DNA of 64,000 nt. It comes from an uncultured Clostridia bacterium (lineage in GTDB: Bacteria; Bacillota; Clostridia; Lachnospirales; Lachnospiraceae). Shown piece after piece: positions 13,730 through 38,004 of this stretch (its first letter is position 1; each line of letters opens with the position of its first letter). Location: NCBI GenBank assembly GCA_947303805.1, contig CAMYZE010000006.1, positions 11,216 through 75,215 on the forward strand. The letters run 5' to 3'. Under the pieces are notes generated by a model that made no database searches, was not told the DNA's origin, and saw nothing but the letters and a program-made list of their open reading frames with translations. Position numbers and translations under genes: made by a program.

Positions 13730-13731
13730 CT

Positions 13732-15498: not shown

Positions 15499-15507
15499 TA
15501 AAAATAT

Positions 15508-15540
15508 TCTCGGCTTTTCAATTTTGAAGAGCCGAGGTTT
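15508..15540 (+). other. Intercistronic stem-loop between hydA copy 1 and its ferredoxin (weak terminator or stabiliser)
   Basis: CTCGGCT.../...AGCCGAG forms an 11-12 bp stem followed only by GTTTG. It is absent from the second copy of the duplication. Confidence 0.45.
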
Positions 15541-15584
15541 GAAAAAAACTTATAGTTTGAAACTAAAACTGAAAGGAGAATATC

Positions 15585-15752: not shown

Positions 15753-15812
15753 TAATTTCGAAACCAAACTTAGTAATAATTTTGTAAAAATAATAAAAAA
15801 AGGAGAACAAAT

Positions 15813-19462: not shown

Positions 19463-19490
19463 TTGACAATTTTGTTTAAAGTGATAAAAT
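19463..19490 (+). promoter_or_regulatory. Promoter candidate for the mop operon
   Basis: TTGACA, a 16-nt spacer, then TGaTAAAAT (extended -10). Confidence 0.6.
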
Positions 19491-19504
19491 ATATATAATT
19501 GATT

Positions 19505-19669
19505 TAATGTTGCGAGCTACTTAAGCCCAATGGGTTTAAATAGCCAATGAGTGTAGATAGTAATGTTTGCGCTTGCCTTTTGCGAAGTAGCATTAATTGT
19601 TTTTTACATATAATTTTGAATAAAGCAACATTAGATGATTTATATATATATTTCATTTAATGTTTTTTT
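19505..19669 (+). promoter_or_regulatory. Structured leader with terminator (unassigned riboswitch-like element, copy A)
   Basis: The core is GCGAG-N27-CCAATGAGTGTA-N16-CTTGCCTTTTGCGAAG. The terminator is AACATTAGATGA/TCATTTAATGTT plus T5 at 19627..19669. The 5' segment TAATGTTGC is complementary to the terminator 5' arm. A paralogous element lies at 34244..34392. Confidence 0.6.
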
Positions 19670-19703
19670 ATTACATATTATTTATTTATAGGAGGAAATA
19701 ACT

Positions 19704-19913
19704 ATGAAATTAAGCGCTAGAAATCAATTTAAAGGAAAGGTTGTAGAGATTAAGGAAGGAGCAGTAAATGGGACTGTAAAAATCGACATCGGTGGTGGCA
19801 ATGTGATTAGTTCTGTAATTACTATGGCTTCAATTAAGGAATTAGGACTTGCAGTTGGTAAGGAAGCATATGCAGTAATTAAAGCATCTTCAGTTATGGT
19901 TGGAGTAGATTAA
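19704..19913 (+). CDS. mop: Molbindin (Mop, TOBE-domain molybdate/tungstate-binding protein)
   Basis: 69 aa beginning MKLSARNQFKGKV..., with VKASSVMV near the end. This is the classic Mop/TOBE sequence. Confidence 0.85.
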   Translation: MKLSARNQFKGKVVEIKEGAVNGTVKIDIGGGNVISSVITMASIKELGLAVGKEAYAVIKASSVMVGVD

Positions 19914-19948
19914 GCAATAATTGTAAGAATGAAAGGAAGGTTGTAGTA

Positions 19949-21091
19949 ATGGCTCTAAAAGATATACATCAAAGCGTTGTATCAAACGATAATATAGATG
20001 TATATTTTGATGTGAATGTTTCTGAAAATGAAAAAGAGAAAGATTTAAACACTAGTAAATATTTAAAAGAAATCAAAGAAAACAATAGTAGAAGCATAGT
20101 GATAGGATTTTTTATCGTTATGCTTCTTTTTTTTGTAATTCTAATATCTTTTAATGTCGGTAGATATGCAGTAAGTATTGATCAAGTTGTAAAAATATTA
20201 TTTAAAGATATTTTCCATTTTGAAAAGACCTGGGAAGATGTATATGAAACTATAGTTTGGAATGTGCGAATGCCAAGAATAATTGCCGCATTGCTTGTAG
20301 GTGCATCTCTTTCTGTGGCAGGAGCCACATACCAGGGTCTATTTAGAAACCCCATGGTGTCACCTGATATTTTAGGTGCTTCAGCAGGAGCAAGTGTAGG
20401 AGCTTGCCTTATGATGCTACTTAAACAAAATGGGGTTACAATTCAAATAGCTGCATTTGCATTTGGCTTACTTGCTGTGTCACTCACTTATAGTTTGAGT
20501 AAAGCAATTAGCAAAAGTGCAGATATGGTATTAATGCTTGTGTTATGCGGTCTTATAGTATCAACATTATTTCAGGCATTCGTATCTATAATCAAGTATG
20601 TTGCTGATACTGATTTATTGCTTCCTGAAATTACATATTGGCTTATGGGAAGTATTGCAAAAGTCACCTATAAAGATCTAATGTTCTTTATGATACCATT
20701 TATTTTTGGAGTTGTGCCCATAATGATGATAAGGTGGCAGTTGAATGTCATGTCATTTGGAGAAGATGAAGCAAAAGCCATGGGTGTCAATGTAAGTTTG
20801 ATAAGACTTATTTGTATTATATGTTCAACTCTTTTAACTGCTGGAGTTGTGTCGATTGCAGGAACAGTGGGATGGGTTGGACTTATGATACCTCACTTGG
20901 TTAGATTTATGGTGGGACCTAATAATGGAAAACTTCTTCCAATATCATTTCTAACTGGATCGCTTTTTATGCTTATCGTAGATGATGTCTGTAGGTCAGC
21001 ACTTGCATATGAGATACCATTAGGTGTATTAACTTCACTTATTGGTGCACCATTTTTTATATTGATTTTGTATAAACATAAAGGTAATTAA
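19949..21091 (+). CDS. FecCD/BtuC-family ABC permease (system 1) with about 60-aa N-terminal extension
   Basis: It carries the motifs PRIIAALLVGASLSVAGATYQGLFRNPMVSPDILG and IPLGVLTSLIGAPFF. Confidence 0.8.
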   Translation: MALKDIHQSVVSNDNIDVYFDVNVSENEKEKDLNTSKYLKEIKENNSRSIVIGFFIVMLLFFVILISFNVGRYAVSIDQVVKILFKDIFHFEKTWEDVYETIVWNVRMPRIIAALLVGASLSVAGATYQGLFRNPMVSPDILGASAGASVGACLMMLLKQNGVTIQIAAFAFGLLAVSLTYSLSKAISKSADMVLMLVLCGLIVSTLFQAFVSIIKYVADTDLLLPEITYWLMGSIAKVTYKDLMFFMIPFIFGVVPIMMIRWQLNVMSFGEDEAKAMGVNVSLIRLICIICSTLLTAGVVSIAGTVGWVGLMIPHLVRFMVGPNNGKLLPISFLTGSLFMLIVDDVCRSALAYEIPLGVLTSLIGAPFFILILYKHKGN

Positions 21092-21871
21092 ATGGAATTA
21101 AGAATTGAAAATGGAATATGTGGTTATAAAAATGTTCCTATTATTAAAAATATAAGTATTGGATTTAAGCAAGGAGAAATAGTTGGTATTCTCGGGCCAA
21201 ATGGTGTTGGTAAAACGACAATGTTTAGATCTATACTCGGATTTCTGCCACTTATAAAAGGCAACATAACACTTGACAATGTAAATAAGAGTGACATTAG
21301 TGTAAAAGAGTTTTCAAAAAACGTTGCTTATGTCCCACAAAGTAATAATCCGCCATTTCCATTTGCAGTGCCTGATGTAGTGGTGATGGGTAGGATAAGT
21401 AGATTGAAAAGATTTGAAAGACCTGGAATAAAAGACTATTTAGTTGCCTATAAAGCTCTTGAAGTATTATCTGTATCTTACTTAAGAGATAAGATATTTA
21501 CAGAAATATCTGGTGGTGAAAGGCAAATGGTTTTAATTGCAAGAGCATTGGCACAAAGTCCAAAACTTTTAGTTATGGATGAACCGACAGCAAATCTCGA
21601 TTTGGGAAATCAAATTAGAGTATTGTCCACAATCAGGCATTTGTCGAGTATGGGATTGGGTGTACTTATGACAACGCATAGTCCAGATCATGCTTTTCTA
21701 TGTTGCGACAGAGTGATTCTCATAACTAAAAACAAAGAAGTGGTAACTGGAACAGTAGATGAAATAGTTACTGAAGAAAATTTAAAGAGAGCATATAATG
21801 TTGATGTAAAAATTACAGAGATTAAAGGTAGCGACGGAAAAGCAATTAAAACATGTGTACCATTAATTTAA
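21092..21871 (+). CDS. ABC transporter ATPase (FecE/BtuD-like, system 1)
   Basis: Walker A GPNGVGKTT, signature SGGERQ and Walker B LLVMDEPT are all present. Confidence 0.85.
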   Translation: MELRIENGICGYKNVPIIKNISIGFKQGEIVGILGPNGVGKTTMFRSILGFLPLIKGNITLDNVNKSDISVKEFSKNVAYVPQSNNPPFPFAVPDVVVMGRISRLKRFERPGIKDYLVAYKALEVLSVSYLRDKIFTEISGGERQMVLIARALAQSPKLLVMDEPTANLDLGNQIRVLSTIRHLSSMGLGVLMTTHSPDHAFLCCDRVILITKNKEVVTGTVDEIVTEENLKRAYNVDVKITEIKGSDGKAIKTCVPLI

Positions 21872-21918
21872 AATAATCGAAATATAATTAAAGGAGGCTG
21901 TGGAAACACAGAATAATA

Positions 21919-23013
21919 ATGAGTAATAAAGTTTTAAATAAGATCAAAATGCTAATTTTTTCAGTGCTTACAGTTATTATAATATTGGTGACAGCTTGTA
22001 GTTCAAATAAATCTGTTGATAGTTCGAGTGCGAGCAAGGATGCTGTCACAGTTAATGAAAAGAAAACAAGAAAGATAGTAGACATGAAAGGGGTAGAAGT
22101 TGAGATACCTGAAAAAGTAAATACATTTGTAGAAAGTTGGTTTGCTCACAATGCTGTAGATGTGATGTTGAGAAATGCAGAGGGAATGCTTGTGACTTGT
22201 TGCGATGAACCATCATATCAATGGATGTATAAGGTGTGTGATAATTTAAGTAAGGCTCAGTTTGCAAAATTTTCAGATTCTATGAATCTAGAAGAGATTA
22301 TTTCTTTAAACCCAGATGTTGTATTTGGTTCAAATGAAAAATATAGAGATATGTTTACAAATGTAGGTATACCTTTTGTAAATTGTACGTTTACAAATTA
22401 TGATGAGATGAAGAGGTCTATAAAACTTACTGCAGAAGTTTTTGGCGGTGATGCAGTCGATAAAGCGAATAGATATATTTCTTATCTTGATACAAAGCTA
22501 AGTGAAGTCAAAAAGGTAACTGATACTGTGCCTGAAGATAAAAAAACTACAATTGTGCATGGTAGTTCAGTCTACAAGATGGGTGTTGATGGCAGAAACA
22601 CTATTATAAATGATTGGATAGGATATAGCGGAGGCATCAATGCAGCTGCTAATGATATAGATGGTAATTTACAGACTATGACTATGGAACAATTACTTCT
22701 TTGGGATCCAGATGTAATTATTACAGGTGATACGGAGGAAGAAGTCGATAAAATTATGTCAGATGCTTCATGGCAAAACTTAAAGGCCGTGAAAGAAGGC
22801 AGAGTATATGCCAACCCGAAAGGTATATTTGCATGGGATAGGTATGGAGTAGAGGAGGCACTACAATTTCAATGGTGTTCACAAAAATTATACCCAGAAC
22901 TATTTAAAGATTTTGACATAAAAGCTGAGCTTAAAAAATTCTATAAGGACTTCCTAGATTATGAATTAAGTGATGAAGATGCTGAAAAAATCCTAAGGCA
23001 CCAAAATCCATAA
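21919..23013 (+). CDS. Periplasmic-binding-protein (class 8, FecB/BtuF-like) lipoprotein (system 1)
   Basis: It has a signal peptide with lipobox LVTAC, the LNPDVVFG motif, and LLWDPDVIITGD typical of the siderophore/cobalamin-type SBP fold. Confidence 0.7.
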   Translation: MSNKVLNKIKMLIFSVLTVIIILVTACSSNKSVDSSSASKDAVTVNEKKTRKIVDMKGVEVEIPEKVNTFVESWFAHNAVDVMLRNAEGMLVTCCDEPSYQWMYKVCDNLSKAQFAKFSDSMNLEEIISLNPDVVFGSNEKYRDMFTNVGIPFVNCTFTNYDEMKRSIKLTAEVFGGDAVDKANRYISYLDTKLSEVKKVTDTVPEDKKTTIVHGSSVYKMGVDGRNTIINDWIGYSGGINAAANDIDGNLQTMTMEQLLLWDPDVIITGDTEEEVDKIMSDASWQNLKAVKEGRVYANPKGIFAWDRYGVEEALQFQWCSQKLYPELFKDFDIKAELKKFYKDFLDYELSDEDAEKILRHQNP

Positions 23014-23094: not shown

Positions 23095-23203
23095 TTAAAT
23101 ATAAGAAATATCCCCCCCCTGACGCTTAAGAAGTATCTGAGGCGAAAGATATGGTAGAGAATTTTTAGGAGCAATGACCATATCTTGTGATATGGTCTTT
23201 TTT
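23095..23203 (+). promoter_or_regulatory. Leader with C8 tract, alternative pairings and an intrinsic terminator (attenuator/riboswitch-like)
   Basis: The terminator is GACCATATC-ttgt-GATATGGTC plus T6 (23176..23203). AAGATATGGT (23146-55) can pair with the terminator 5' arm as an antiterminator. ATATC (23108-12) can sequester GATAT. Confidence 0.5.
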
Positions 23204-23209: not shown

Positions 23210-24004
23210 ATGAAAATTACAAATCTTTACAAAGAAAAAGAAAATACAGAAGTTAGGGATTCTATAATCCATAAGGAAAATGGAGAGAAAGAAAACTTAC
23301 CATATGAGCTTTTAAATGAGCACTTAATTAAAGTGTATATCAATGAGAGAGAGGCTATGAGTTTAGTTTGTACCGGAACTAATCTTGTTGAATTAGTTGT
23401 TGGAAGAATAGTAAGTGAAGGTATCGTAAAAAATATTGACGATATTGAGAGCATATATATTTGTGAATATGGCCTTAGAGCAAAACTGATGATTAAAAAT
23501 TATGTACACGATGCGTGTAAACTTAAGGCATCAGATGATGTTGCAAGTTGCTGCCAAGATAATAGGACATATCTGAAGAGTGAAACAAAACTTGAGAAAG
23601 TAAATAAAATTATGGAAGTAAGTGATAAAGATGTGTTTAATCTTGCAGAGGCATTTAATGAAGATTCAAAGATTCACAAGATGACTTCTGGCACACATGC
23701 TGCATATCTATATTATGATGGCAAGGTAGTAAAATCATTTGAAGATATAGGAAGACATAATGCTCTTGATAAGATCATAGGATTTATATATATGAATAAT
23801 TATGTGCCTGAGAAATGCATAGTCTTTACTACAGGCAGAGTTCCGGTTGATATGGCAAGAAAGGCAATCTATTCAAAACTAGGATGTCTTGTATCAAAAG
23901 CAGTGCCAACTTCAGATGCAGTTGATTTAGCAAAGGAATATAATTTAAATCTTATTTGCAGAGCATGGAGAGATTCTTATCAAGTTTTTAACGAAGCACA
24001 TTAA
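23210..24004 (+). CDS. fdhD: Formate dehydrogenase accessory sulfurtransferase FdhD
   Basis: SGTHAAYLY and GRHNALDKIIG motifs are present. The start is placed at the ATG after the terminator hairpin. The alternative in-frame start at 23174 lies inside that hairpin, with an AGGAG only 2 nt upstream. Confidence 0.8.
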   Translation: MKITNLYKEKENTEVRDSIIHKENGEKENLPYELLNEHLIKVYINEREAMSLVCTGTNLVELVVGRIVSEGIVKNIDDIESIYICEYGLRAKLMIKNYVHDACKLKASDDVASCCQDNRTYLKSETKLEKVNKIMEVSDKDVFNLAEAFNEDSKIHKMTSGTHAAYLYYDGKVVKSFEDIGRHNALDKIIGFIYMNNYVPEKCIVFTTGRVPVDMARKAIYSKLGCLVSKAVPTSDAVDLAKEYNLNLICRAWRDSYQVFNEAH

Positions 24005-24006: not shown

Positions 24007-25017
24007 ATGAGAAAAGTGAAAACAGTTAATAAAAAAATAAATATATTGGTGGCGATATTGTTGGTTGTTTTGCCAATAATAATATCTATTATTTGTCTTG
24101 GATTTGGAAGGCTTAGCATACCTACACGTGAAATTATTGATTACTTTAAAGGTCATGAAATATCAAAACAAAATGTATTAATATTATCTAATGTCCGCAT
24201 ACCAAGAATAATTTCAGCTATTCTAGTAGGAGCTTCTCTTCCTCTTGCTGGTCTCATATTTCAATCTTATTTTTCAAATCCACTGGCAACGCCTGACACT
24301 TTGGGAGTTGCAAGTGGATCTAGTTTTGGAGCGGCACTTGCAATTCTATTTGGATTTAATATTTTTGGAATTGAAATTTCTGCATTTGTATTTGGGCTTT
24401 TAACTATTGTTATAACTGGAATTACAGGTATAAAGAGAGATGAGTCAAAGCAGACAATCATCCTTGCGGGCATAATAGTTGGTTCGCTTTTCCAAAGCCT
24501 TGTATCACTTGTTAAGTTTGTGGCTGATACTGACACGGTCCTTCCATCTATAACATTTTTTCTTATGGGAAGTTTTCAATCTATAGGCAAGGAGACATTA
24601 TTTGTAAGTGGACCTATAATCATAATTTGCATATTGATAATATTTTTACTTAGGTGGAGAATCAATCTTCTCACAGTTGATGAAGAAGTTGTAAAAACTA
24701 TGGGAGTAAATATTACTTTACTTAGAATGATAGTAATAGTTGCAGCGACTGTAATAACTGCTATTTCTATAGCTATGGCAGGTCAAGTGGGATGGGTTGG
24801 ACTTATAGTGCCACATTTTTGCAGGATGCTTGTGGGTGAAAACCATACTAAGCTTGTGCCATTCACTATAAGCATTGGCATTTGCTTTATGGTTATAATT
24901 GACACTTTGGCGAGGTCTATGTTTGCTGCTGAGATACCAATATCAGTTTTGACTTCATTAATAGGTGCACCATTTTTCATATATATGATTAGAAGTAGAG
25001 AAGGAGTTAAATTATGA
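24007..25017 (+). CDS. FecCD/BtuC-family ABC permease (system 2)
   Basis: It carries the motifs PRIISAILVGASLPLAGLIFQSYFSNPLATPDTLG and IPISVLTSLIGAPFF. Confidence 0.8.
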   Translation: MRKVKTVNKKINILVAILLVVLPIIISIICLGFGRLSIPTREIIDYFKGHEISKQNVLILSNVRIPRIISAILVGASLPLAGLIFQSYFSNPLATPDTLGVASGSSFGAALAILFGFNIFGIEISAFVFGLLTIVITGITGIKRDESKQTIILAGIIVGSLFQSLVSLVKFVADTDTVLPSITFFLMGSFQSIGKETLFVSGPIIIICILIIFLLRWRINLLTVDEEVVKTMGVNITLLRMIVIVAATVITAISIAMAGQVGWVGLIVPHFCRMLVGENHTKLVPFTISIGICFMVIIDTLARSMFAAEIPISVLTSLIGAPFFIYMIRSREGVKL

Positions 25018-25796
25018 TTTTAGAAATTAAAAATTTAACTTTTTCTTATGATAAGCATATAGTTTTTAAGGATTTAAATTTCAAACTAGAAAGCCCCGAT
25101 GTCTTATCAATACTTGGCCCAAATGGCATAGGAAAAACTACTTTAATTAAATGTCTCCTTGGTGTAAAGAAAAAAACTAGTGGAGAAATATTGGTTGATG
25201 GTAAGGAGATAGATGGCTTTAATAAAAAAGATTTTTATTCTTTTGTTGCCTATCTTAAGCAAGGCGGAAAAGAGACATCTATATATACAGTACTTGATAC
25301 AGTCTTACTTGGGCTTGCAAGTCAGATAAATCCGCTTTTAAAGCCAAAAGACAGTGATATATTAAAAGTTAATAATATATTAAATGAACTTGGTATATAT
25401 CATTTGAAAGATAAATATGTTTCAAGACTAAGTGGTGGTGAGGCACAGATGGTATTTATGGCAAGAGCACTTGTGAGAGAACCAGAGATTCTTATACTTG
25501 ATGAACCTGAGTCAAATCTTGATTACAGAAATCAATTACTTATGCTTGACACAATTGATAGATTAAAAACACACGGCAAACTAATTATTTTCAACACTCA
25601 CTATCCAGAACATGCCTTAAGATATTCAAATAAAGTTTTATTACTCAATGACTCTTATAAATATAAATTTGGCAACACAGGCGACATTATCACAAAAGAA
25701 AATATAGAAGCTACCTATAAAATTAAAGCTGCAGTGGGAGAACTAAAAGACGGCGATACAACATATAAAGATATTATCCCATTATCAATCGTATAA
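25014..25796 (+). CDS. ABC transporter ATPase (system 2)
   Basis: Walker [10 protein letters not shown], signature SGGEAQ and Walker B ILILDEPE are present. Its start overlaps the permease stop. Confidence 0.85.
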
Positions 25797-25798
25797 AA

Positions 25799-25820
25799 GT
25801 TGGGCGAGTTGCACGAGCCC
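25799..25820 (+). repeat. REP-like repeat copy
   Basis: GTTGGGCGAGTTGCACGAGCCC is followed directly by GAGGAGG and the nifH-like start. Confidence 0.7.
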
Positions 25821-25831
25821 GAGGAGGACAT

Positions 25832-26578
25832 ATGAAAAAATTTGCAATTTATGGAAAAGGCGGCATTGGTAAATCTACCACCGTATCAAATCTATCAGCC
25901 GCATTTGCTGACATGGGAAAGAGTGTAATGCAAATTGGCTGCGATCCAAAAGCTGACTCTACAGGACTTATTACTCATGGCAAAAAAGTAAATACAACTT
26001 TAGAACTTATAAGAGATAAAAAAGACAATTTCGAGCTTGATGATATGATTAGACTTGGATATAAAGATATAGTTTGTGCTGAGGCAGGAGGTCCAACTCC
26101 GGGACTTGGATGTGCAGGTCGTGGAATTATTTGTGCACTCGAAAAACTTGAAGAGAAGGGTGCATATAAGAAATATAAACCAGACATAGTCTTTTATGAT
26201 GTACTTGGTGATGTAGTCTGTGGCGGTTTCTCTATGCCTATGAGAAGTGGATATGCAGATAAAGTATTTGTTATTACATCTGGTGAAAATATGTCTATAT
26301 ATGCTGCAGCCAATATTTGTATGGCTATAGAAAATTTTAAAGGCAGAGGTTATGCAAAGCTTGGTGGTATTATATTAAATAAAAAGAATGTGAAAGATGA
26401 AGAGAAGAAAGTAAAAGAACTTTGTAAAGAGTTCAAAACTAAGATTGTAGGAGTTTTGCCATTTGATGAGATAGTTCATAAGGCTGAAGATTTGAAAAAA
26501 ACCGTCATTGAAGCATTTCCAAATAGTGATATGGCTAAGGCTTATAAGAAACTTGCGAAGGAGGTACTTGATGCTTAG
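25832..26578 (+). CDS. NifH/BchL/CfbC-family ATP-dependent reductase component (nitrogenase iron protein-like, 248 aa)
   Basis: It has the P-loop [10 protein letters not shown], switch CDPKADS, and the cluster cysteines in GCAGRG and VCGGF. Confidence 0.85.
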
Positions 26579-27899
26579 GTCTGTTAGTGAAGAACATGGA
26601 AACATTGCAATAGGTAAATCATTAAAAGAAATTAATGCTGATGCACCATTTGACACAGGACTCGAATATGGTTGCCCAGCAAGAGGTACATGGAATATAG
26701 TTCATACTGGATTTTTAGTTCCAGAATGTCATGAAGTATTCGTATGTGCAGCTAATTGTCTTAGAGGAGTAGTACTTACAGCTGCTGAGATGGGGACTAT
26801 TGGTCAATTTTCAACAGTCACTATCAAAGAAAATAATGTACTTGATGGAAATATGGAAGAACTTCTTATAGATGGAGTCACTTCCATAATTAAAAAGTTA
26901 AAAAAGAAACCAAGAGCGATTCTAGTTTATACAAGTTGTATACATCATTTTATGGCGCTTGATTTAGACCTATGTTATAAAACACTTCGTAAGAGGTTTC
27001 CAAAGATAAAGTTCACTGATTGCTATATGAATCCAATTATGAGAAAGAGTGGAATGACGCCAGATGAACTTATGAGAAGACAGCTTTATTCACTTATAGA
27101 TAAGACTGACAAAAAAGATAATGGAATAAATATATTTGGAAATAACTACGCAACCGATGAGAGCAGTGATCTTGTGAGACTTATAAGGTCTAGTAAATAT
27201 AAATTAAGAGATATTACATATTGTAGGACATTTGACGAATATGAAGAGATGGGGAAGAGTAGATTTAATATTGCCTATCTCGGTGTTGCAAAGAAGGGAT
27301 TGTACGATATAAGCAACAAACTTGATCAAGAAGCGATATTCATCCCAATTAGTTATGACCCAAATACAATAAAAAGTTATTTGAAAACACTTGCTGATAC
27401 TATAAATGTAGACATCAACAAATTTGACTTTAAGGAAGATGAAGCACTTACTAAACTTAAAGAAGCCAAAAAAGTCATTGGGAACACAGCAATCGCTATT
27501 GATTACACATTTACTCCAGCAACATTAAGTCTCGCAAAACTTTTACTCGACTATGATTTCAATGTTAAAAAAATATATATTGATTCAATCGGAGAGAAAG
27601 ATATACTTGATGAGATCAAAAAGAAATATAGTGATAGAGACATAATGTTTTACCCTACAGTAAATGTTGCGATGAGGAAGAATGATAGAGAACAAAGTGA
27701 AAAGTACTTGGCACTCGGCCAAAAAGCTGCATACTTCACAGATACAAATTATTTTGTAAATGAAGTGGAGTGCGGTGGTCACTATGGATTTGACGGCATC
27801 AAAAGACTTGCAGAGAATATGATAGAAGCAAATTCGAAAGAAAAAGATGCGTCAATATTAATTCAAAAGAAAGGATTGGGGTGTAACTGTTTATTATGA
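26571..27899 (+). CDS. Nitrogenase component-1-type oxidoreductase, NifD/NifE-like subunit (442 aa)
   Basis: The ATG at 26571 overlaps the nifH-like stop by 8 nt; the track start at 26508 would run through the nifH-like 3' end. Cysteines sit in YGCPARG and TSCIHH contexts analogous to the NifD/E cluster-ligand positions. Confidence 0.65.
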
Positions 27900-29062
27900 G
27901 ACAAATACAAACATTCACAAGTACATATACAGCAGATGTATCAGGAGTGCCATCAGCACTCTATGAGCTGGGTGGCATGAGTATAATGCACGATGCTTCG
28001 GGTTGCAACTCAACTTACAATACACATGATGAACCTAGATATTATGATAGTAAAAGCATGGTATTTATCACAGGACTTTCAGAGATGGAAGCCATAATGG
28101 GTGATGATCAAAAGTTAGTAAATGATATTATAAAGGCAGCTAAAGAATTAAAACCAAGATTTATTGCTATCGCAGGTACACCAATACCTATGATTACAGG
28201 TTGCGACATAGAAGCAAATGCGAGAGTAATTGAATCGGAAACAAAAATTCCAACTTTTGGTATAAATACAAATGGTATGCATTCTTATGTAGAAGGAGCA
28301 GGAGAGGCACTTCTTCACTATGCCAAAGCATTTGTAAAAAAGAATATAAAGAAGAAAAGTAATTCTGTTAATATATTAGGTGCAACACCTATTGATTTTT
28401 CAGTCAATGGTCAAATAGAAAGCATAAAGAAGTTTTTGGAGTCTAACGGCATAAAAGTCATTTCTAATTTCGCACTCGGATGTGATATAGATGAGATGGC
28501 AAATGCAGGCGAAGCTTCAGTAAACCTCGTTGTGTCATCAGTTGGCATAAAGATTGCAGAATATTTGCAAAATGAATTTAATACTCCATATATAGTCGGA
28601 GTCCCATATGGCAACCAAATGAAGCAAGATTTAATTAAAGCAATCGTAGGGGCGAGTTTTGCGACCCCAAGTTTTATTAGTGATATAGGTAATAAATTTA
28701 AGAACGAAAAAATCTATATAATTGGCGAATCAGTAACTTCAAAATCCCTTGCCAGATACATTTACAATAAATATGGCCATACGGCAAAAGTTATCTCTGC
28801 AGTAGAACTTGGAAACACTTATCACGGCGACATTGTTAAGAATCTAAATGTAAGAGATAATGTAGCACTTGAAAAGTTTGATTTACATATAGAGGATGAG
28901 GACAATATTGCAGAAGCAATAAAAGATGCAAAAATGGTTATTGCAGACCCACTCTATAGACCAATTGTGCCAAGTAAAGCTATATTCGTAAATCATCCAC
29001 ACGAAGGGTTCTCGGGTAGACTGTTTCGTAAAAATATTTTAAATTTAATTGATATATTATAG
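27896..29062 (+). CDS. Nitrogenase component-1-type oxidoreductase, NifK/NifN-like subunit (388 aa)
   Basis: It is translationally coupled to the preceding gene. DASGCNSTY and ITGCDIE cysteine contexts and a Rossmann-like repeat layout are present. Confidence 0.65.
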   Translation: MRQIQTFTSTYTADVSGVPSALYELGGMSIMHDASGCNSTYNTHDEPRYYDSKSMVFITGLSEMEAIMGDDQKLVNDIIKAAKELKPRFIAIAGTPIPMITGCDIEANARVIESETKIPTFGINTNGMHSYVEGAGEALLHYAKAFVKKNIKKKSNSVNILGATPIDFSVNGQIESIKKFLESNGIKVISNFALGCDIDEMANAGEASVNLVVSSVGIKIAEYLQNEFNTPYIVGVPYGNQMKQDLIKAIVGASFATPSFISDIGNKFKNEKIYIIGESVTSKSLARYIYNKYGHTAKVISAVELGNTYHGDIVKNLNVRDNVALEKFDLHIEDEDNIAEAIKDAKMVIADPLYRPIVPSKAIFVNHPHEGFSGRLFRKNILNLIDIL

Positions 29063-29072
29063 GAGGAAAAAA

Positions 29073-30215
29073 ATGAAGAAATTTTTATCAGTTATTTTAG
29101 TTTTAACAATTTGCGCATCGCTTTTATCTTGCGCAAACAATGCTCAGGCACCAGAGGATCCATCTGGCACCACTCATATTGTGATTGATCATGGTGGCAA
29201 CCAAGTTGAAGTGCCAAATAAAATTGAGAGAATTGTAGTATCAGACATTTTCCCAATTCCAGCAGTTCTGTCTGTATTTTTCAATAGTGCTGATAAAATT
29301 GTTGGCATAGCACCAACAAGTTACAGCGCAGCTAAAAATAGTTTGCTTTCTCAGATTTATCCAGAAATTTTGAATGCAAAAACTGATTTTATGAACGGAA
29401 ATGTTATCAATGTAGAAGAACTCATGAAATTAAACCCTGATGTAGTATTTTACAGTGAGAACAACAACGAGCAAAAAGAGGTTTTAACCAAGGCTGGATT
29501 TTGTGCCATAGGTATTTCTGCAAATGGCTGGCATTATGATTGCATAGAAACACTTAACCAGTGGCTTAAAACTTTGACAGAAGTATTTAAGTATTCAGAT
29601 GATATAAAGATTTTAACTGAGAGAAGTAATAAGGCGCAAAAGAAGTCAGTTGAAATTTATGATATGATTAAGAGCAGAGTTTCTAAACTCACTAATGAAG
29701 AGAAAAAGAGGGTTTTCTTCTTATTCCAATACAATGACAGTACTATGATGACATCTGGTAAGAATTTCTTTGGACAGTGGTGGGCAGATGCATCAGGTTG
29801 TCTAAATGTAGCTGAGGAACTTGAAAAAGACAATTCAGTAGCAACTAATCTCGAACAAGTTTACGCTTGGAACCCAGACATGATATTTATTACAAATTTC
29901 ACAACTGCACTGCCAAATGATTTATATGAAAACACAGTTGGTACATATGACTGGAGTGAAGTGAAAGCTGTAAAGGATAAAGAAGTTTATAAACTTCCAC
30001 TTGGCATGTATAGAACATACACACCTGGAATAGATACACCTATTACACTTCTTTGGTTTGCAAAAACTGCTTATCCAGATATGTTTAATGATGTTGATTT
30101 AGTTAAGGAGACAAGAGCATATTATCAAGATATATTTGGTATTCAACTTAATGATGACCAAATAAAGAGTATATATAATCCAGATGCGAATGCTGGAAGA
30201 ACTTATTTTAACTAG
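29073..30215 (+). CDS. Periplasmic-binding-protein (FecB/BtuF-like) lipoprotein (system 2)
   Basis: AGGAGG RBS precedes the ATG at 29073. It has lipobox LLSCAN, and the LNPDVVFY and WNPDMIFITN motifs. Confidence 0.7.
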   Translation: MKKFLSVILVLTICASLLSCANNAQAPEDPSGTTHIVIDHGGNQVEVPNKIERIVVSDIFPIPAVLSVFFNSADKIVGIAPTSYSAAKNSLLSQIYPEILNAKTDFMNGNVINVEELMKLNPDVVFYSENNNEQKEVLTKAGFCAIGISANGWHYDCIETLNQWLKTLTEVFKYSDDIKILTERSNKAQKKSVEIYDMIKSRVSKLTNEEKKRVFFLFQYNDSTMMTSGKNFFGQWWADASGCLNVAEELEKDNSVATNLEQVYAWNPDMIFITNFTTALPNDLYENTVGTYDWSEVKAVKDKEVYKLPLGMYRTYTPGIDTPITLLWFAKTAYPDMFNDVDLVKETRAYYQDIFGIQLNDDQIKSIYNPDANAGRTYFN

Positions 30216-30283: not shown

Positions 30284-30538
30284 ATGAATAGAATAGCAAC
30301 AATTAGTATTATTGTAGAACAAAATAATAAAGAGACAGTACAAAAAGTCAATGACTTATTGCATGAGTTTCAAGATGTGATTTTAGGTAGGATGGGAATA
30401 CCTGACAAGACTCACAATGTAAACATAATAAGCGTTGCAATGTGTGCTGATGAAGATAAAATCAATGCGCTTACAGGTAAGCTTGGCAGAATAGATGGTA
30501 TAAGTGCAAAAACACTTTATTCTAAAAATTCATATTAA
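30284..30538 (+). CDS. TM1266-family small ACT/NikR-C-like protein (iron-only hydrogenase system regulator family)
   Basis: 84 aa, MNRIATISIIVE...GRMGIP...ISV..C...INALTGKLGRI. The track start (TTG at 30245) reads through a repeat element, so the ATG at 30284 is preferred. Confidence 0.6.
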   Translation: MNRIATISIIVEQNNKETVQKVNDLLHEFQDVILGRMGIPDKTHNVNIISVAMCADEDKINALTGKLGRIDGISAKTLYSKNSY

Positions 30539-30662: not shown

Positions 30663-31703
30663 ATGAACAAGGTAGTTAGTAAATTTATTGACACTCATAG
30701 TTTGTCCGTTGAAGAATATGAATCACTGCTAAACAATATAACAAGCGATGAAAAGGAAGTTTTAAAACAAGAGGCAGTAAAACTAGCCACATCGGTATAT
30801 GGCAATAAAATTTATGCAAGAGGGCTTATTGAGTTTTCGAATTATTGTAAAAACAATTGTTATTATTGTGGAATCCGAAACGGAAATAAAAACTGTGATA
30901 GATATAGACTTACAAAAGAACAAATTTATGATTGTTGTGATTTAGGATATGAACTTGGTTTTAGAACATTTGTATTACAAAGTGGAGAAGATTTGTTTTT
31001 TAATGATGATTTGATGGTCGAAATAATTTCTCACATAAGAAGCAAGTTTCCTGACTGTGCTATAACTATATCTATAGGTGAAAAAGAAAAATCAACTTAT
31101 CAAAAATATTTTAATGCTGGAGCAAATAGATATTTACTTAGACATGAAACTGCAAACAAAAAACTTTATGAAACAATTCATCCAAAAGAAATGTCGTTTG
31201 ATAACAGAATGAGATGTTTGCAAGATTTAAGAGATATAGGCTTTCAGGTGGGTGCTGGATATATGGTTGAGTGTCCACATCAGACAAACTATGATTTAGC
31301 ACTTGATTTAAAATTTGTAGAAGAATTTAAACCAGAGATGTGTGGTATAGGACCATTTATTCCACATAAAGATACTGATTATAAAAATGAAAAAGCAGGA
31401 ACTTTAGAAAAAACTCTTTTGCTTCTTTCTATTACACGAATTATTTTGCCAAGAGTCCTACTTCCAGCAACCACAGCCCTTGGTACTATTAATCCGCTTG
31501 GCAGAGAAATGGGAGTTGAACATGGCGCGAATGTTGTTATGCCAAATCTTTCACCAACAGAAGTTAGAAGCAAATATTTATTATATGACAATAAGATTTG
31601 CACTGGAGATGAAGCTGCTGAATGTAAAAACTGCATGAGTGCAAGGATGAAGCGAATTGGTTATGAATTAGTTATCGATAGAGGAGACTTTAAAAAAGAG
31701 TAA
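30663..31703 (+). CDS. hydE: [FeFe] hydrogenase H-cluster radical SAM maturase HydE
   Basis: It has the CKNNCYYCGIR radical-SAM motif, BioB-like size (346 aa), and a position between the TM1266-like gene and hydF. Confidence 0.8.
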   Translation: MNKVVSKFIDTHSLSVEEYESLLNNITSDEKEVLKQEAVKLATSVYGNKIYARGLIEFSNYCKNNCYYCGIRNGNKNCDRYRLTKEQIYDCCDLGYELGFRTFVLQSGEDLFFNDDLMVEIISHIRSKFPDCAITISIGEKEKSTYQKYFNAGANRYLLRHETANKKLYETIHPKEMSFDNRMRCLQDLRDIGFQVGAGYMVECPHQTNYDLALDLKFVEEFKPEMCGIGPFIPHKDTDYKNEKAGTLEKTLLLLSITRIILPRVLLPATTALGTINPLGREMGVEHGANVVMPNLSPTEVRSKYLLYDNKICTGDEAAECKNCMSARMKRIGYELVIDRGDFKKE

Positions 31704-31714: not shown

Positions 31715-32932
31715 ATGGGAAGTTTAAATGAGACAGCAAATTCCGATAGAATTCATATAGGTTTTTTCGGCTGTAGGAATGCAGGAAAGTCAAGTGTAGT
31801 TAATGCAGTTACAAATCAAGAGATTGCTGTTGTCTCTGATGTGAAAGGAACTACAACTGACCCAGTTCAAAAGGCTATGGAAATTTTGCCACTTGGGCCA
31901 GTAGTTATCATTGATACTCCTGGTTTTGATGATGACGATAAACTTCTAGGTGCAAAGAGAGTAGATAGAGCAAAGAAGATTTTAAATAAATCTGACATTG
32001 CTGTGCTTGTTGTATCTGCAACTGAAGGCATTAATAATTATGACGAAGAACTTTTGAAAATTTTTAAAACAAAAGATATTCCTTATATAGTAGTATTTAA
32101 TAAGACAGATTTGATTGATGATGTAAAAAAGAAGGACTTGGAGTCAAAACTTGATGAGACATCTAAAAAGAATTATCTATTTGTGAGTGCTACTACAAAA
32201 GAAGGTATAGAGAACTTAAAAAATATAATAGGAAGGCTTAGGCCAGATGAGGCAAATAAATCTCTTGTAGGAGATATAGTAAAGAAAAATGATTTTATAG
32301 TCTTAGTAACACCAATAGATGAATCAGCACCTAAAGGAAGAATGATTTTACCTCAAGTACAGATGATTAGAGATATATTAAATCATGATGCTTATTGCAT
32401 AGTTACTAAAGAGACCGAGCTAAAAAATGTACTTGACACTATGGGTAGAAAACCTGACTTTGTTATTACTGATAGCCAAGTTTTCAAATTTGTTGATAGT
32501 TTAGTGCCAAAAGATGTACCACTCACATCATTTTCTATACTTCTCGCTAGATATAAAGGTTTCTTAAATACAGCTGTTAAAGGTGTAGAGGCTGTTAAGA
32601 CTCTTAAAGAAGGTGACACTGTACTTATTGCAGAGGGGTGTACTCATCATAGACAGTGCTATGACATTGGTACATATAAGATACCAAAGTGGCTAAAAGA
32701 ATTCACTGGTGCCAATATAAATATTGAGACATCATCTGGCACAGAGTTTCCGGAAGATTTGTCTAAATATAAAATGGTAATACACTGCGGAGGTTGTATG
32801 ACACCTGATAGAGAGATGTTGTATCGAATGAAATGCGCAGTGGATGCCGGGAAACCATTTACTAATTATGGAATATTTATTGCATATGTGAATGGTATAT
32901 TAGCAAGAAGTATTGAAAAAATTCCAATGTAG
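31715..32932 (+). CDS. hydF: [FeFe] hydrogenase maturation GTPase HydF
   Basis: The GTPase motifs GCRNAGKSS and DTPGFDD plus NKTD are present, with C-terminal cluster cysteines in EGCTHH and HCGGC. Confidence 0.85.
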   Translation: MGSLNETANSDRIHIGFFGCRNAGKSSVVNAVTNQEIAVVSDVKGTTTDPVQKAMEILPLGPVVIIDTPGFDDDDKLLGAKRVDRAKKILNKSDIAVLVVSATEGINNYDEELLKIFKTKDIPYIVVFNKTDLIDDVKKKDLESKLDETSKKNYLFVSATTKEGIENLKNIIGRLRPDEANKSLVGDIVKKNDFIVLVTPIDESAPKGRMILPQVQMIRDILNHDAYCIVTKETELKNVLDTMGRKPDFVITDSQVFKFVDSLVPKDVPLTSFSILLARYKGFLNTAVKGVEAVKTLKEGDTVLIAEGCTHHRQCYDIGTYKIPKWLKEFTGANINIETSSGTEFPEDLSKYKMVIHCGGCMTPDREMLYRMKCAVDAGKPFTNYGIFIAYVNGILARSIEKIPM

Positions 32933-32945
32933 TAAAATAATAAGA

Positions 32946-32968
32946 GGGCTCGTAAAACTTGCCCATAC
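32946..32968 (-). repeat. REP-like repeat copy (reverse orientation)
   Basis: The + strand reads GGGCTCGTAAAACTTGCCCATAC. Confidence 0.7.
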
Positions 32969-32972
32969 AAAT

Positions 32973-32996
32973 GTAGGGGCGAACGCTTGCGGAGCC
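32973..32996 (+). repeat. REP-like repeat, variant B
   Basis: GTAGGGGCGAACGCTTGCGGAGCC. Confidence 0.65.
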
Positions 32997-33011
32997 AGAA
33001 AGGAGAATAAA

Positions 33012-33359
33012 ATGGAAAACAGAATTTTTAAAGTAGCAGATTATTTAAAGGAGAGTACTGAGGCAGCAGTAAAAACTGTTGTAAAAGACACTGACAAATC
33101 TTGTACTGTTGTATGGGTTGTAAAACCTGGCCAGTCAGTAAAGTGTCACAGACATCCAAATGCTGATGATGTGTGGTATGTTCTTGAGGGAGAGGGCATG
33201 TTTCACTGTGAAGTTGGTAAAGATACCCTTGTAAAGGCTGGTGATGTCATTATCAATAAGGTTGGAGACTGCCACGGTGTCACTAATCATAGTGATAAAG
33301 ACTTCAAGTTTTTAGGAGTTTTAACTCCTATACCTGCTCAATATGAAGCCTTAGAATAG
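33012..33359 (+). CDS. Cupin-domain protein
   Basis: 115 aa from the ATG at 33012, with a GGAG RBS. It has an H.H....D...G......H cupin-like pattern (CHRHPNADDVWYVLEGEG...CHGV). The track start at 32913 reads through repeat elements. Confidence 0.6.
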   Translation: MENRIFKVADYLKESTEAAVKTVVKDTDKSCTVVWVVKPGQSVKCHRHPNADDVWYVLEGEGMFHCEVGKDTLVKAGDVIINKVGDCHGVTNHSDKDFKFLGVLTPIPAQYEALE

Positions 33360-33374
33360 TATATTATATAAAAA

Positions 33375-33398
33375 ATGCCACAAAATGTGGTATTTTTT
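33375..33398 (+). terminator. Rho-independent terminator
   Basis: ATGCCACA-aaa-TGTGGTAT followed by TTTTT. Confidence 0.7.
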
Positions 33399-33439
33399 GT
33401 TAAAAAAACACTTTTTTTAAGGTAAAATCGATATATTAT

Positions 33440-33468
33440 TTGATAAATATTTAATAATATACTATAAT
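33440..33468 (+). promoter_or_regulatory. Promoter candidate for rubrerythrin
   Basis: TTGATA, a 17-nt spacer, then TATAAT. Confidence 0.6.
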
Positions 33469-33518
33469 ATATGACAGTAAACAAAATTGAAATTAACAAA
33501 ATAAAAAGGAGAGTTAAT

Positions 33519-34058
33519 ATGTCAAAATACGCAGGAACAAAAACTGAGAAAAACTTAATGGAAGCATTTGCTGGTGAGTCTCAAGCTAGAAATAAGTATA
33601 CTTACTTTGCAAGTGTTGCTAGAAAAGAAGGTTATGAGCAGATTGCTGCAATCTTTGAAGAGGCAGCTGCAAATGAAAAAGAGCATGCTAAACTTTGGTT
33701 CAAAGAGTTAGGCGGCATTGGCGATACTGCTACAAACCTTACTCATGCTGCAGAAGGTGAGCATGAAGAACACACTGCTATGTATCCAAGAATGGCTAAG
33801 GAAGCAGAAGAAGAGGGCTTCAAGGAAGTTGCAGCTATGTTTACAATGGTTGGCAAGATTGAAGAGAAACACGAAGAGAGATATTTAAAAGTTTTAAAGA
33901 ACTTAAAAGAAGATTTAGTATTTAAAGCAAGCGATGGACAAATGATGTGGATTTGTAGAAATTGTGGTCACATCCATGTTGGTGCAAATGCTCCTGAACT
34001 TTGTCCAGTATGCAAACATCCAAAGAGCTTCTTTGAGAGAAGAGCAATGAATTACTAA
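33519..34058 (+). CDS. rbr: Rubrerythrin
   Basis: It begins MSKYAGTKTEKNLMEAFAGESQARNKY and has a C-terminal rubredoxin-like CRNCGH...CPVCKHP. The start is taken at the internal ATG preceded by AAGGAG. Confidence 0.85.
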   Translation: MSKYAGTKTEKNLMEAFAGESQARNKYTYFASVARKEGYEQIAAIFEEAAANEKEHAKLWFKELGGIGDTATNLTHAAEGEHEEHTAMYPRMAKEAEEEGFKEVAAMFTMVGKIEEKHEERYLKVLKNLKEDLVFKASDGQMMWICRNCGHIHVGANAPELCPVCKHPKSFFERRAMNY

Positions 34059-34079
34059 TTAATTATTAGGAGGACGATT

Positions 34080-34214
34080 ATGGTTTATAAGTGTAAGATT
34101 TGCGGACACAAGTATGATGAAGCAGCAGAAGGTGTAAAGTTTGCTGATTTACCAGATGATTGGAAGTGCCCAATCTGTGGTGTTGGCAAAGATATGTTTG
34201 AGCCAGCTGAGTAA
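34080..34214 (+). CDS. Rubredoxin (44 aa)
   Basis: My own translation is [44 protein letters not shown]. An AGGAGG RBS precedes it. It is below the ORF-track cutoff. Confidence 0.85.
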
Positions 34215-34243
34215 TTAATCACAATAAGTAAAAAAAAATCATT

Positions 34244-34392
34244 AGTGTTAGCGAGTTATTATTGACCAAGTGCCAATTTTAACCAATGAGTGTAAGTGGC
34301 GACATTTATACTTGCCTTTTGCGAAGCTACATTGATAACTTTGTAAATTAAGCATTAGATGATTTATATTGATAAATTATTTAATGCTTTTT
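34244..34392 (+). promoter_or_regulatory. Structured leader with terminator (unassigned riboswitch-like element, copy B)
   Basis: It has the same core and the same spacings as 19505..19669: GCGAG 34251-55, CCAATGAGTGTA 34283-94 and CTTGCCTTTTGCGAAG 34311-26. The terminator is AAGCATTAGATGA/TTATTTAATGCTT at 34350..34392. Confidence 0.6.
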
Positions 34393-34418
34393 AAATTATA
34401 AAAAAATTTGGAGGAAAT

Positions 34419-35441
34419 ATGTTTAAAAAGAAAGTATTAGCATTAATAGCAGTACTTGCAATGGTACTCGGATTAGTAGCTTGTGGAAACAAGACTACAA
34501 CAACAGCTGCAGTAGAAACAACAGCAGTTGAGACTACAGCAGCAAAGGAAGAAGAGAAGAAAAGTGTAAATCTTGAAATCTTACTTGAGAGAGATGATTC
34601 AATGATTAACACATATTCACTTCTCGCAGTAAATGATGCAGCTCCATTTGTAGATGCAAATGACAAAGCTGTAACTGATGTAAAGTTAAATACAGCAGGT
34701 GCAGATGCACTCATCAATTGGATGCTTGGTGAAGGTGAAGATCTTGCCAAGAATTATGGCTATGACAAATACGGTGAGTATTTATTCTATTTACTTGACA
34801 ATGCACCAAAGTCATCTGCAGAGATTCCTGCAGCAACTGAAGAGACAAAGACAATCAGAATGTCAACCACTACTTCAGTAAATGACTCAGGACTTCTTGG
34901 GTATTTACTTCCACAATTTGAGAGTAAGTATGGTTATAAGGTTGAAGTATTTTCAGCTGGTACAGGAAAATCAATTGCAAATGCAAAAGCAGGAAATGCT
35001 GATGTAATTTTAGTTCATGCTAAGGCTCAAGAAGAAAAGTTTATTGAAGATGGTTTTGCTAGAAAAGTTGATGGATTTGATAAAGAGAGATTATCTTATA
35101 TGTATAATTTCTTTGTACTCTGCGGACCAAAAGAGGATCCAGCAAATGTTAAGGGTGCTGCTTCAGTTCTTGATGCATTTAAAGCAATAGCTGATGGCAA
35201 GTTCTTATTTGTATCTCGTGGAGATAAATCAGGAACTCACACTAAAGAGTTATCTCTTTGGCCAAAGGACCTCGGAATCACTGATGATCCAACAACATTT
35301 GAGAAGTATCAAGATTGGTATATCTCTTCAAATGCAGGTATGGGTGTATGCTTAACTCAAGCTGCAGAAAGAGGAGCATATATTTTATCTGACAAAGCTA
35401 CTTTCCTTACATTTAAGGCAAATGGCGGAGTTATAAAATAG
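34419..35441 (+). CDS. tupA: Tungstate/molybdate ABC transporter substrate-binding lipoprotein (TupA-like, apparently circularly permuted)
   Basis: It has lipobox LVACGN, the anion-binding motif MSTTTSVNDSGLL, and SRGDKSGTHTKE. The segment LEILLERDDSMINTYSLLAVND that is normally C-terminal in TupA sits near the N-terminus here. Confidence 0.7.
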   Translation: MFKKKVLALIAVLAMVLGLVACGNKTTTTAAVETTAVETTAAKEEEKKSVNLEILLERDDSMINTYSLLAVNDAAPFVDANDKAVTDVKLNTAGADALINWMLGEGEDLAKNYGYDKYGEYLFYLLDNAPKSSAEIPAATEETKTIRMSTTTSVNDSGLLGYLLPQFESKYGYKVEVFSAGTGKSIANAKAGNADVILVHAKAQEEKFIEDGFARKVDGFDKERLSYMYNFFVLCGPKEDPANVKGAASVLDAFKAIADGKFLFVSRGDKSGTHTKELSLWPKDLGITDDPTTFEKYQDWYISSNAGMGVCLTQAAERGAYILSDKATFLTFKANGGVIK

Positions 35442-35463
35442 GATAATTGCTTTTGGTACTCTG

Positions 35464-37939: not shown

Positions 37940-37943
37940 GGTT

Positions 37944-37967
37944 GTAGGGGCGAATGCTTGCAGAGCC
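37944..37967 (+). repeat. REP-like repeat, variant B
   Basis: GTAGGGGCGAATGCTTGCAGAGCC. Confidence 0.65.
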
Positions 37968-37970
37968 AGC

Positions 37971-37993
37971 GTAGGGGCGAGTTTTACGAGCCC
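37971..37993 (+). repeat. REP-like repeat copy
   Basis: GTAGGGGCGAGTTTTACGAGCCC followed by GAAGGAAAAAT-ATG. Confidence 0.75.
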
Positions 37994-38004
37994 GAAGGAA
38001 AAAT

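Follow-up and report, generated by a model that had tools for sequence, protein, structure and literature searches.

The closest described counterparts of the system reported here were mentioned in one sentence by Dos Santos et al. (2012), who noted NifHEN-like proteins encoded beside ABC transporters and hydrogenase maturases. That study placed them in a ‘red clade’ including Coprococcus catus GD/7, Dorea longicatena, Mlab_1039/1040 and Dhaf_1539/1540, and proposed that metal transport is coupled to cofactor assembly and that such clusters help to build the metallocluster of the hydrogenase active site. A 2026 Chem Rev review of nitrogenase-like (NFL) enzymes lists several clades as uncharacterised and regards the function of most clades as an open problem to which gene context gave little help; HydE, HydF and hydrogenase maturation are unmentioned. 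Our literature search found no paper tying HydE/HydF to NifH-like proteins and ABC transporters, and Group VI of the Elusimicrobia has a different context, rich in radical SAM genes. Here we analyze a 64,000-nucleotide stretch (the window) of contig CAMYZE010000006.1 from an uncultured Lachnospiraceae bacterium, in which a NifH/D/K-like trio and a FecCD-type ABC importer form one six-gene block, followed by genes for TM1266, HydE and HydF and preceded by a leader RNA. The NFL clade is thus one that was noted before and is uncharacterised; its conserved architecture and leader RNA are previously undescribed.

Judged against the published description, the window trio matches the ‘red clade’ in both cysteine pattern and synteny, with two cysteines in the D/E subunit (equivalents of alpha-C88 and alpha-C154), one in the K/N subunit, Lachnospiraceae hosts, and ABC transporter and maturation genes as neighbors. 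The 2012 account consists of a phylogeny and one speculative sentence, whereas the importer type, TM1266, the gene order, the leader and the hypFCDE variant described below are absent from it. The original prediction for this DNA, made from the letters alone, was silent on this earlier description of the cysteine pattern and gene associations. NifH with NifEN offers a second comparison: an ATPase reductase serves a heterotetrameric scaffold with an interfacial [4Fe-4S] cluster, which acts downstream of a radical SAM enzyme and passes a metallocluster to a carrier, and NifE is the top match of the window D family. In contrast, NifB is missing from the window, no residue of the trio corresponds to NifE Cys250, and the partners are HydE, HydF and an importer. 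DPOR/COR, CfbCD, MarHDK, IsrHDK and NfaHDK share with the trio the three components, the NifH-like cluster cysteines and a reduced ligand set, but none of them is part of a hyd operon or joined to a type II importer.

Window genes were called from a list of open reading frames (ORFs) with translations, and domains were assigned with Pfam and NCBIfam models. The six tightly packed genes that had been proposed are present at 24007-30215, all on the plus strand. They encode, in order, a MolB-like permease of a FecCD/type II ABC importer (24007-25017; PF01032, 271 bits), the importer ATPase (25014-25796; PF00005, 104 bits), a NifH-like ATPase of 248 amino acids (aa) representing the [4Fe-4S] reductase subunit, NflH (25832-26578; PF00142, 304 bits), a NifE/D-like component-1 subunit of 442 aa with an Oxidored_nitro domain (26571-27899; PF00148, 52.9 bits), a NifN/K-like component-1 subunit of 388 aa with the same domain (27896-29062; PF00148, 119.9 bits), and a Peripla_BP_2 class-8 substrate-binding lipoprotein (SBP) of the MolA/CeuE-like branch (29073-30215; PF01497, 55 bits; lipobox LLSC). 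The successive junctions measure -4, +35, -8, -4 and +10 nucleotides (nt), i.e., the ATPase gene overlaps the permease gene by 4 nt, the D-like gene overlaps the NifH-like gene by 8 nt, and the K-like gene overlaps the D-like gene by 4 nt. Three more plus-strand genes follow: a small ACT/NikR_C-like protein of the TM1266 family, a putative regulator whose gene probably starts at 30284 (30284-30538; TIGR03959, 100.7 bits, cut-off 60.8), the radical SAM H-cluster maturase HydE (30663-31703; TIGR03956, 556 bits against 254.6), and the H-cluster scaffold GTPase HydF (31715-32932; TIGR03918, 548 bits against 325.55). The arrangement from the leader RNA to hydF is best explained as one long operon.

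HydE and HydF are true maturase orthologues by sequence: HydE aligns with Thermotoga maritima HydE at 284 bits and HydF with T. neapolitana HydF at 347 bits, and the CX3CX2C motif of HydE and the CxH...HCxxC motif of HydF are conserved. The window TM1266 protein is homologous to PDB 2nzc. The three proteins are orthologous to those of the Thermotoga HydE/HydF/HydG system with TM1266; the difference is that the window cluster interleaves the importer and the NFL trio with the maturases, and that hydG was not found nearby. It was found neither among the window ORFs scanned nor in 80 genome loci nor in 80 metagenome loci, and the loci gave no weak matches of HydE-like type either.

To describe the conservation of this context, ORFs were called in the 80 genome loci and classed by phmmer with the window proteins, counting only loci with enough flanking sequence. 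The permease and ATPase genes accompany the trio in 46 of 50 loci and the SBP gene in 49 of 54; TM1266 is present in 40 of 50, hydE in 34 of 50 and hydF in 28 of 54. The modal order, TM1266-permease-ATPase-hydE-H-D-K-SBP-hydF, occurred 17 times, and the permuted orders include those of the window and of metagenome contigs. No further gene family recurs in the flanks of the 80 loci. Relatives of the D-like subunit at only 27-28% identity retain SBP, FecCD and ABC neighbors, with the orders H-D-K-SBP-permease-ATPase and SBP-permease-ATPase-D-K-H and without hyd genes, which indicates that the six-gene unit of NFL trio and importer is old. Joining with the hyd genes typifies a large clostridial clade. 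The proposed linkage of trio and importer was thus borne out in related genomes, while the description of fdhD and hydE/hydF as neighbors holds in part: they do flank the block, but hydE and hydF, like TM1266, also belong to the conserved cluster, where they are interleaved with its other genes.

The family of the D-like subunit is large, with 3292 proteins at E ≤ 1e-5 among the candidates scored and 762 clusters (50% identity) at E ≤ 1e-3, and at least 596 species-representative genomes carry relatives. Among the hosts are Lachnospiraceae, Oscillospiraceae, Clostridium, Intestinibacter, Mogibacterium, Synergistaceae and one Loigolactobacillus. In this last host, Loigolactobacillus rennini DSM 20253 (L042:1-9793), the order is H-D-K-SBP-hydF, and the HydF motif HCGGC has become QCGGC; hydF is followed by genes for NTPase_1, a ModE-type helix-turn-helix (HTH) protein, a permease, an ATPase and a DUF364/DUF4213 ‘heavy-metal chelation’ protein. 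Literature searches on TM1266, PDB 4OVK and an L. rennini hydrogenase returned nothing useful.

A different arrangement was found in three Clostridium-type loci, from the two named acetogens C. muellerianum and C. ragsdalei and one Clostridiaceae metagenome-assembled genome (MAG; L015:317-10477, L028:2-10459, L052:1-10471). There, two homologous trios flank hypF-hypC-hypD-hypE, the genes of [NiFe]-hydrogenase maturation, with hypF, hypD and hypE scoring 772, 392 and 422 bits, all above the cut-offs. In these loci, no ABC importer lies next to the trios and no leader RNA was found. We regard the hypFCDE linkage as a second, independent tie to hydrogenase active-site assembly.

The trio belongs to the NFL superfamily, combining a NifH-family ATPase that carries two cluster cysteines with two adjacent PF00148 subunits. 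The NifH-like protein has the P-loop GKGGIGKS, both switch regions, and the expected cluster cysteines C94 and C130, invariant across 71 homologues. It scores below each curated NCBIfam cut-off, at 336 bits for nifH (cut-off 394), 321 for CfbC (402), 193 for BchL (345) and 177 for BchX (331). For both component-1 subunits the best match is nifE, at 86 bits for the K-like and 19 bits for the D-like protein against a cut-off of 505; no nifD/K/E/N score exceeds 86 bits, where the cut-offs run from 327 to 654, with the NifE and NifN models giving 19-86 bits against 327-505. The BchN and BchB models reach 18-67 bits against 420-490, and CfbD (TIGR03282) matches the K-like subunit at 37 bits against 268 and the D-like subunit not at all. 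As the original prediction held, the trio is supported as nitrogenase-like rather than nitrogenase. It lies in no characterised clade and has no close solved relative.

The D-like sequence by itself found no significant relative among solved structures (E 0.12). The profile of its family ranked NifE first (E 5e-14), then VnfD and then MarD, the last (9d9u, 9fmg) at E 1e-8 only. AlphaFold modeling of the single D chain gave a pLDDT of 84.5 and a pTM of 0.84, and with this model Foldseek placed AnfK, VnfK, NifK, NifN, NifE, MarD and BchN/B at about equal distance (TM 0.54-0.67, 9-14% identity). Fusion proteins of H with D (e.g., P0163) and of D with K are present in the family, supporting a physical H:DK complex. 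One distant D-like protein, P0266 (552 aa), joins Oxidored_nitro to the C-terminal half of an SBP_bac_6 domain, and could be either a genuine fusion of reductase and binding-protein folds or a gene-calling chimera.

Residue conservation agrees with a reduced ligand set. In the close clade of the D-like protein, C59, C63, C123 and C151 as well as H45, H54, H125 and H126 are invariant or nearly so, C218 is conserved in 92% and C438 in 89%; across the whole family only C63 and C123 are invariant cysteines. The K-like protein has one invariant cysteine, C37, in addition to H32 and H44. We infer from this pattern that D and K hold a [4Fe-4S] cluster at their interface, bound by C59, C63 and C123 of D and by C37 of K, and a second Cys/His site in the DK core is possible. 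A P-cluster would draw on six cysteines, three alpha and three beta, of which D offers two or three and K one. In the alignment of D to the NifE profile, no cysteine occupies the FeMo-co-ligand position (NifE Cys250/alpha-275), and the trio subunits have no equivalent of alpha-Cys275 or alpha-His442.

Four known enzyme types were rejected as identities for the trio. A true nitrogenase is excluded by the cysteine set, the absent FeMo-co ligands and the sub-cut-off Nif scores; DPOR/COR (BchLNB, BchXYZ) by every Bch score being below its cut-off; and CfbCD by the scores of CfbC and CfbD and by the presence of two distinct subunits in place of a single homodimeric D. MarHDK and IsrHDK (Groups IV-C and IV-F) are marked by P-cluster-type cysteines, the L-like ligands MarD Cys270 and His429, and a NifB homologue. 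They were rejected on the reduced cysteine set and on the lack of a NifB-like gene both in the window and as a recurrent flank of the 80 loci. In the window, HydE and one partial ORF at 63225 are the sole carriers of a CX3CX2C motif; no NifB-type radical SAM gene is present.

The importer was compared with solved type II pumps. The best relative of the permease is HI1471/MolB of Haemophilus influenzae (2nq2), at 252.8 bits, against 173 for FhuB, 149 for HmuU, 136 for BhuU and 122 for BtuC, and the expectation of an importer of the metal-chelate, cobalamin or heme kind did not hold. The lipoprotein matched 4ovk at 138 bits, MolA (3psa/3psh) at 63 bits and CeuE (4ino) at 50 bits; MolA (molybdate/tungstate) and CeuE (nickel) are its nearest named relatives, and weak HMM matches to IsdE (48 bits) and BtuF (26 bits) were also seen. 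MolBC-A (HI1470/71/72), the low-affinity molybdate/tungstate importer of H. influenzae, is a type II importer of these small oxyanions. Homology to it is clear for the permease (253 bits versus at most 173) and weak for the SBP, which belongs to the same class-8 branch but is only distantly related to MolA and nearer to 4ovk. The MolB/MolA kinship speaks against tetrapyrroles and large chelates but does not identify the substrate.

Upstream of the block, a conserved leader RNA was identified on the plus strand. It consists of a P0-P1-P2 hairpin, interrupted by two GA/GA internal loops, at 23113-23160 (40.9 bits and E 3e-7 with our covariance model R1) and an intrinsic terminator at 23176-23203, detected by a terminator scan. 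The consensus yCUGACryCGAAA...UUGAGryGrAAGAyAC is found upstream of the first cluster gene in many loci; besides the window, about 40 loci have the leader ahead of the operon. In the window, the terminator 5' arm ACCATATCTT can pair with the hairpin 3' tail AAGATATGGT through 10 complementary nt, and because of this pairing hairpin and terminator are predicted to be mutually exclusive. In an alignment of 33 sequences (A3), 93% of cells are paired, compared with 26-50% when the partners are slid, and 39 cells show double changes versus 14.8 in shuffles, with none of 500 shuffles reaching 39. Applied to 1.17 Mb, the R1 model returned 45 matches at E of about 0.01 or better, all on the plus strand; in the genome loci they sit just upstream of TM1266 or permease genes only (e.g., L032:3687-3735 and L041:3719-3767). 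A terminator lies 3' of the motif in 41 of 42 instances. No Rfam 15 family matched the leader at the gathering threshold, the permissive mode giving only chance-level matches (E about 1-7). Rfam likewise showed nothing relevant upstream of the operon or its homologues in either mode, and no cobalamin riboswitch before the operon. The leader may represent a new riboswitch, or else an attenuator that depends on a protein.

The distribution of the leader extends beyond the NFL clusters. Scanning metagenomes for the exact pattern returned over 120 matches, and in 71 of the 80 loci fetched (L089-L168) the next gene is TM1266. Among 73 informative downstream contexts, counted without dereplication, 50 were SsuABC-like (NitT/TauT) importers, nine contained NFL genes and/or hydE/hydF, and seven were MolBCA-like importers alone. 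In L119 and about 50 other human-gut metagenome loci, the leader and TM1266 precede a three-gene SsuABC-like importer with no NFL or hyd genes. Occurring before both SsuABC-like and lone MolBCA-like importers, leader and TM1266 look like a regulatory module for small-solute importers, and they appear to regulate small-solute uptake more broadly. Identification of the SsuABC-like permease as SaoP was dropped, the match being weak (82 bits; cut-off 295); Haft's SAO paper mentions neither hydrogenase nor nitrogenase.

Considering these data, we tentatively propose, with a probability of roughly 0.4, that the trio is an ATP-driven NifH/NifEN-like reductase or scaffold that acts on an imported small solute and serves hydrogenase metallocofactor assembly, under the control of an attenuator leader. 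The lipoprotein would capture a small solute, i.e., an oxyanion or a small metal complex rather than a tetrapyrrole or large chelate, and the MolBC-like pump would import it. Using ATP, the NifH-like dimer would hand low-potential electrons to a NifEN-like D2K2 core containing the interfacial [4Fe-4S] cluster (C59, C63 and C123 of D with C37 of K) and perhaps the second Cys/His site. This core could reduce or remodel the imported species, or hold a cluster intermediate as NifEN does, and its product would supply the HydE/HydF assembly of the H-cluster or of related Fe-S centers. At the leader, a hairpin stabilized by a ligand or by TM1266 would keep its 3' tail from pairing with the terminator 5' arm; the freed arm would let the terminator form, turning the operon off.

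The conserved interleaving with HydE, HydF and TM1266 and the hypFCDE link are the reasons for placing the trio in hydrogenase cofactor assembly, and the proximity of the D profile to NifE is the reason for viewing D as maturase-like. The window adds a coherent island of a probable selenocysteine formate dehydrogenase, two HydA genes and maturation genes, which supports the same proposal. In the current view, HydE, HydF and HydG together with housekeeping proteins suffice for [FeFe]-hydrogenase maturation. If the link is functional, it would provide a new step or input in hydrogenase cofactor assembly in dominant H2-metabolizing organisms of the intestine and a first function for an uncharacterised NFL clade. 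The RNA or protein switch, reporting on its ligand, could then be used for finding the substrate. Gene context is unusually informative here, the operon being widespread in gut, rumen and acetogenic Firmicutes.

Several points weigh against this proposal. HydEFG alone yields active HydA in E. coli, and the defined in vitro H-cluster pathway, with HydG, HydE, HydF and the glycine-cleavage proteins, is not known to require an enzyme of this kind. Between about one third and half of the loci lack hydE/hydF in the cluster, and the distant branches keep the importer without hyd genes. The leader and TM1266 also precede importers without NFL or hyd genes, and the link to the hyd genes could therefore reflect co-regulation rather than shared chemistry. 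The cluster is carried by L. rennini as well, and lactobacilli are not noted for [FeFe] hydrogenases. The proposed role draws on sequence and gene context.

Assimilation of small sulfur- or selenium-containing anions such as sulfonate, thiosulfate or thiocyanate is the rival that survives best, although we consider it unlikely. The NFL enzyme would then be an ATP-driven C-S or S-O reductase like MarHDK and IsrHDK, with hydE and hydF merely co-regulated by TM1266 and the leader. Mar and Isr, characterised Group IV NFL enzymes, do cleave C-S bonds for sulfur assimilation, Isr adjoins ssu-type transporters, and the SsuABC-like contexts seen behind the leader and TM1266 in many gut contigs fit the same picture, both importer types being known carriers of small anions. 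Yet genes for cysteine or methionine synthesis and NifB-like genes do not recur near the cluster, Mar has a set of P-cluster cysteines that D and K do not share, and this reading accounts neither for the interleaving of hydE/hydF nor for the hypFCDE link in Clostridium.

Uptake and processing of molybdate or tungstate, with the NifH/NifEN-like proteins reducing, sulfurating or inserting Mo/W into an Fe-S carrier as for FeMo-co, is rather improbable in our view. It would account for the affinity of the permease to MolB and of the SBP to MolA, for the ModE-type HTH gene within the L. rennini cluster, and for the Mo/W character of the window, where a molybdenum cofactor (Moco) riboswitch, a Mop gene, fdhD, a tungstate-type ABC system and two MoeA genes are found. 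Against this, the similarity of the SBP to MolA is modest, at 63 bits, and no Moco riboswitch was matched before the NFL clusters. Mop/MoeA occurred in none of the 80 related loci by phmmer and MoCF_biosynth in one close relative only (L002), while tupC matches were weak and not linked to the cluster; the recurrent partners are the hyd genes.

With even less confidence, and as a speculation, the trio and importer could form a so far unrecognised supply line for the organometallic iron centers of hydrogenases, one version of which would be independent of HydG or supplement it. In that version the NifH/NifEN-like enzyme would reductively cleave an imported small anion, e.g., a thiocyanate-like one giving CN- and sulfide, and the products would be passed to HydE/HydF and, in acetogens, to HypCDEF, with the GA-rich hairpin, an attenuator of a new class, read by TM1266 or directly by a ligand. 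The idea stems from the failure to see hydG in 160 loci while hydE/hydF are embedded there, from the association of two hydrogenase maturation systems with one NFL family, and from both leader-controlled importer types being carriers of small anions.

The original prediction offered a tetrapyrrole or metal chelate as the substrate; no evidence for a tetrapyrrole was found. Reduction of an imported tetrapyrrole (heme, corrinoid or F430-like) or of a large metal chelate or siderophore is the least supported of these alternatives, and there is little chance of its being correct. DPOR, COR and CfbCD show that NFL enzymes can reduce tetrapyrroles, importers of heme, B12 and siderophores are among the members of the FecCD/Peripla_BP_2 families, and there are the weak IsdE and BtuF matches. 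However, the permease is far nearer to MolB than to HmuU, BhuU, BtuC or FhuB, the nearest named relatives of the SBP bind molybdate or nickel, the CfbD and BchN/B scores are far under the cut-offs, no cobalamin riboswitch precedes the operon, and tetrapyrrole genes do not recur nearby. A cryptic true nitrogenase, suggested by superfamily membership alone, has practically no standing given two to three cysteines in D and one in K against six P-cluster ligands, sub-cut-off Nif scores, the missing alpha-Cys275 and alpha-His442 equivalents, and nifB, nifE, nifN and nifV, which the original prediction had also called absent, not being found among the window ORFs scanned (several ORFs were left unscanned). 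Overall, the earlier interpretation is partly supported.

In the window, the first gene 3' of the leader is fdhD, which encodes the formate dehydrogenase sulfurtransferase (23210-24004, plus strand; PF02634, 180.6 bits; TIGR00129, 142.2 bits, cut-off 140.9). It was not found in the other loci compared and does not belong to the conserved cluster. Its true start is probably the ATG at 23210 (MKITNLYK...), since the listed ATG at 23174 sits inside the terminator hairpin of the leader. Outside the conserved cluster, a second importer of the same type had been pointed out at 19949-23013; domain assignments confirm a paralogous MolBC-A-like permease, ATPase and SBP on the plus strand, with 41%, 33% and 24% identity, respectively, to their counterparts in the block. 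Its SBP matches 4ovk at 116 bits and MolA at 69 bits, and directly upstream lies a Mop/TOBE molbindin gene (69 aa, 19704-19913). This paralogue may be a FecCD-type molybdate or tungstate importer. A strong promoter-like site at 19463-19490 is followed by a leader of about 200 nt, the Mop/TOBE gene and the importer; the region 19463-23013 gave no Rfam match and no match to the R1 leader model.

Further upstream, a Moco/tungsten riboswitch (RF01055, 54 bits) at 10654-10773 was assigned to a formate dehydrogenase whose alpha-subunit gene contains a TGA in frame (11969-11971; CARL-U-HSS) that probably encodes selenocysteine. Two [FeFe] hydrogenase (HydA) genes lie 3' of it, and the region 10654-17591 as a whole looks like a formate-hydrogen lyase or CO2-reductase-like module. 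The island fits a formate-hydrogen module encoded with the maturation genes of both enzymes, and this would explain the local Mo/W flavor, which other loci do not conserve. The selenocysteine formate dehydrogenase, the two hydrogenases, the Mo/W-cofactor genes and the leader RNA had all gone unremarked in the original prediction. Past hydF, at 32913-39906, there are genes for a cupin, a rubrerythrin, a PBP_like_2 tungstate/molybdate-type ABC system, a MoeA and a MoeA-PBP_like fusion. The first part of the window (1-10625) carries Mrp/Nuo-like antiporter subunit genes (e.g., 2518-9185) and a gene for a DUF1576 membrane protein at 9237-10625.

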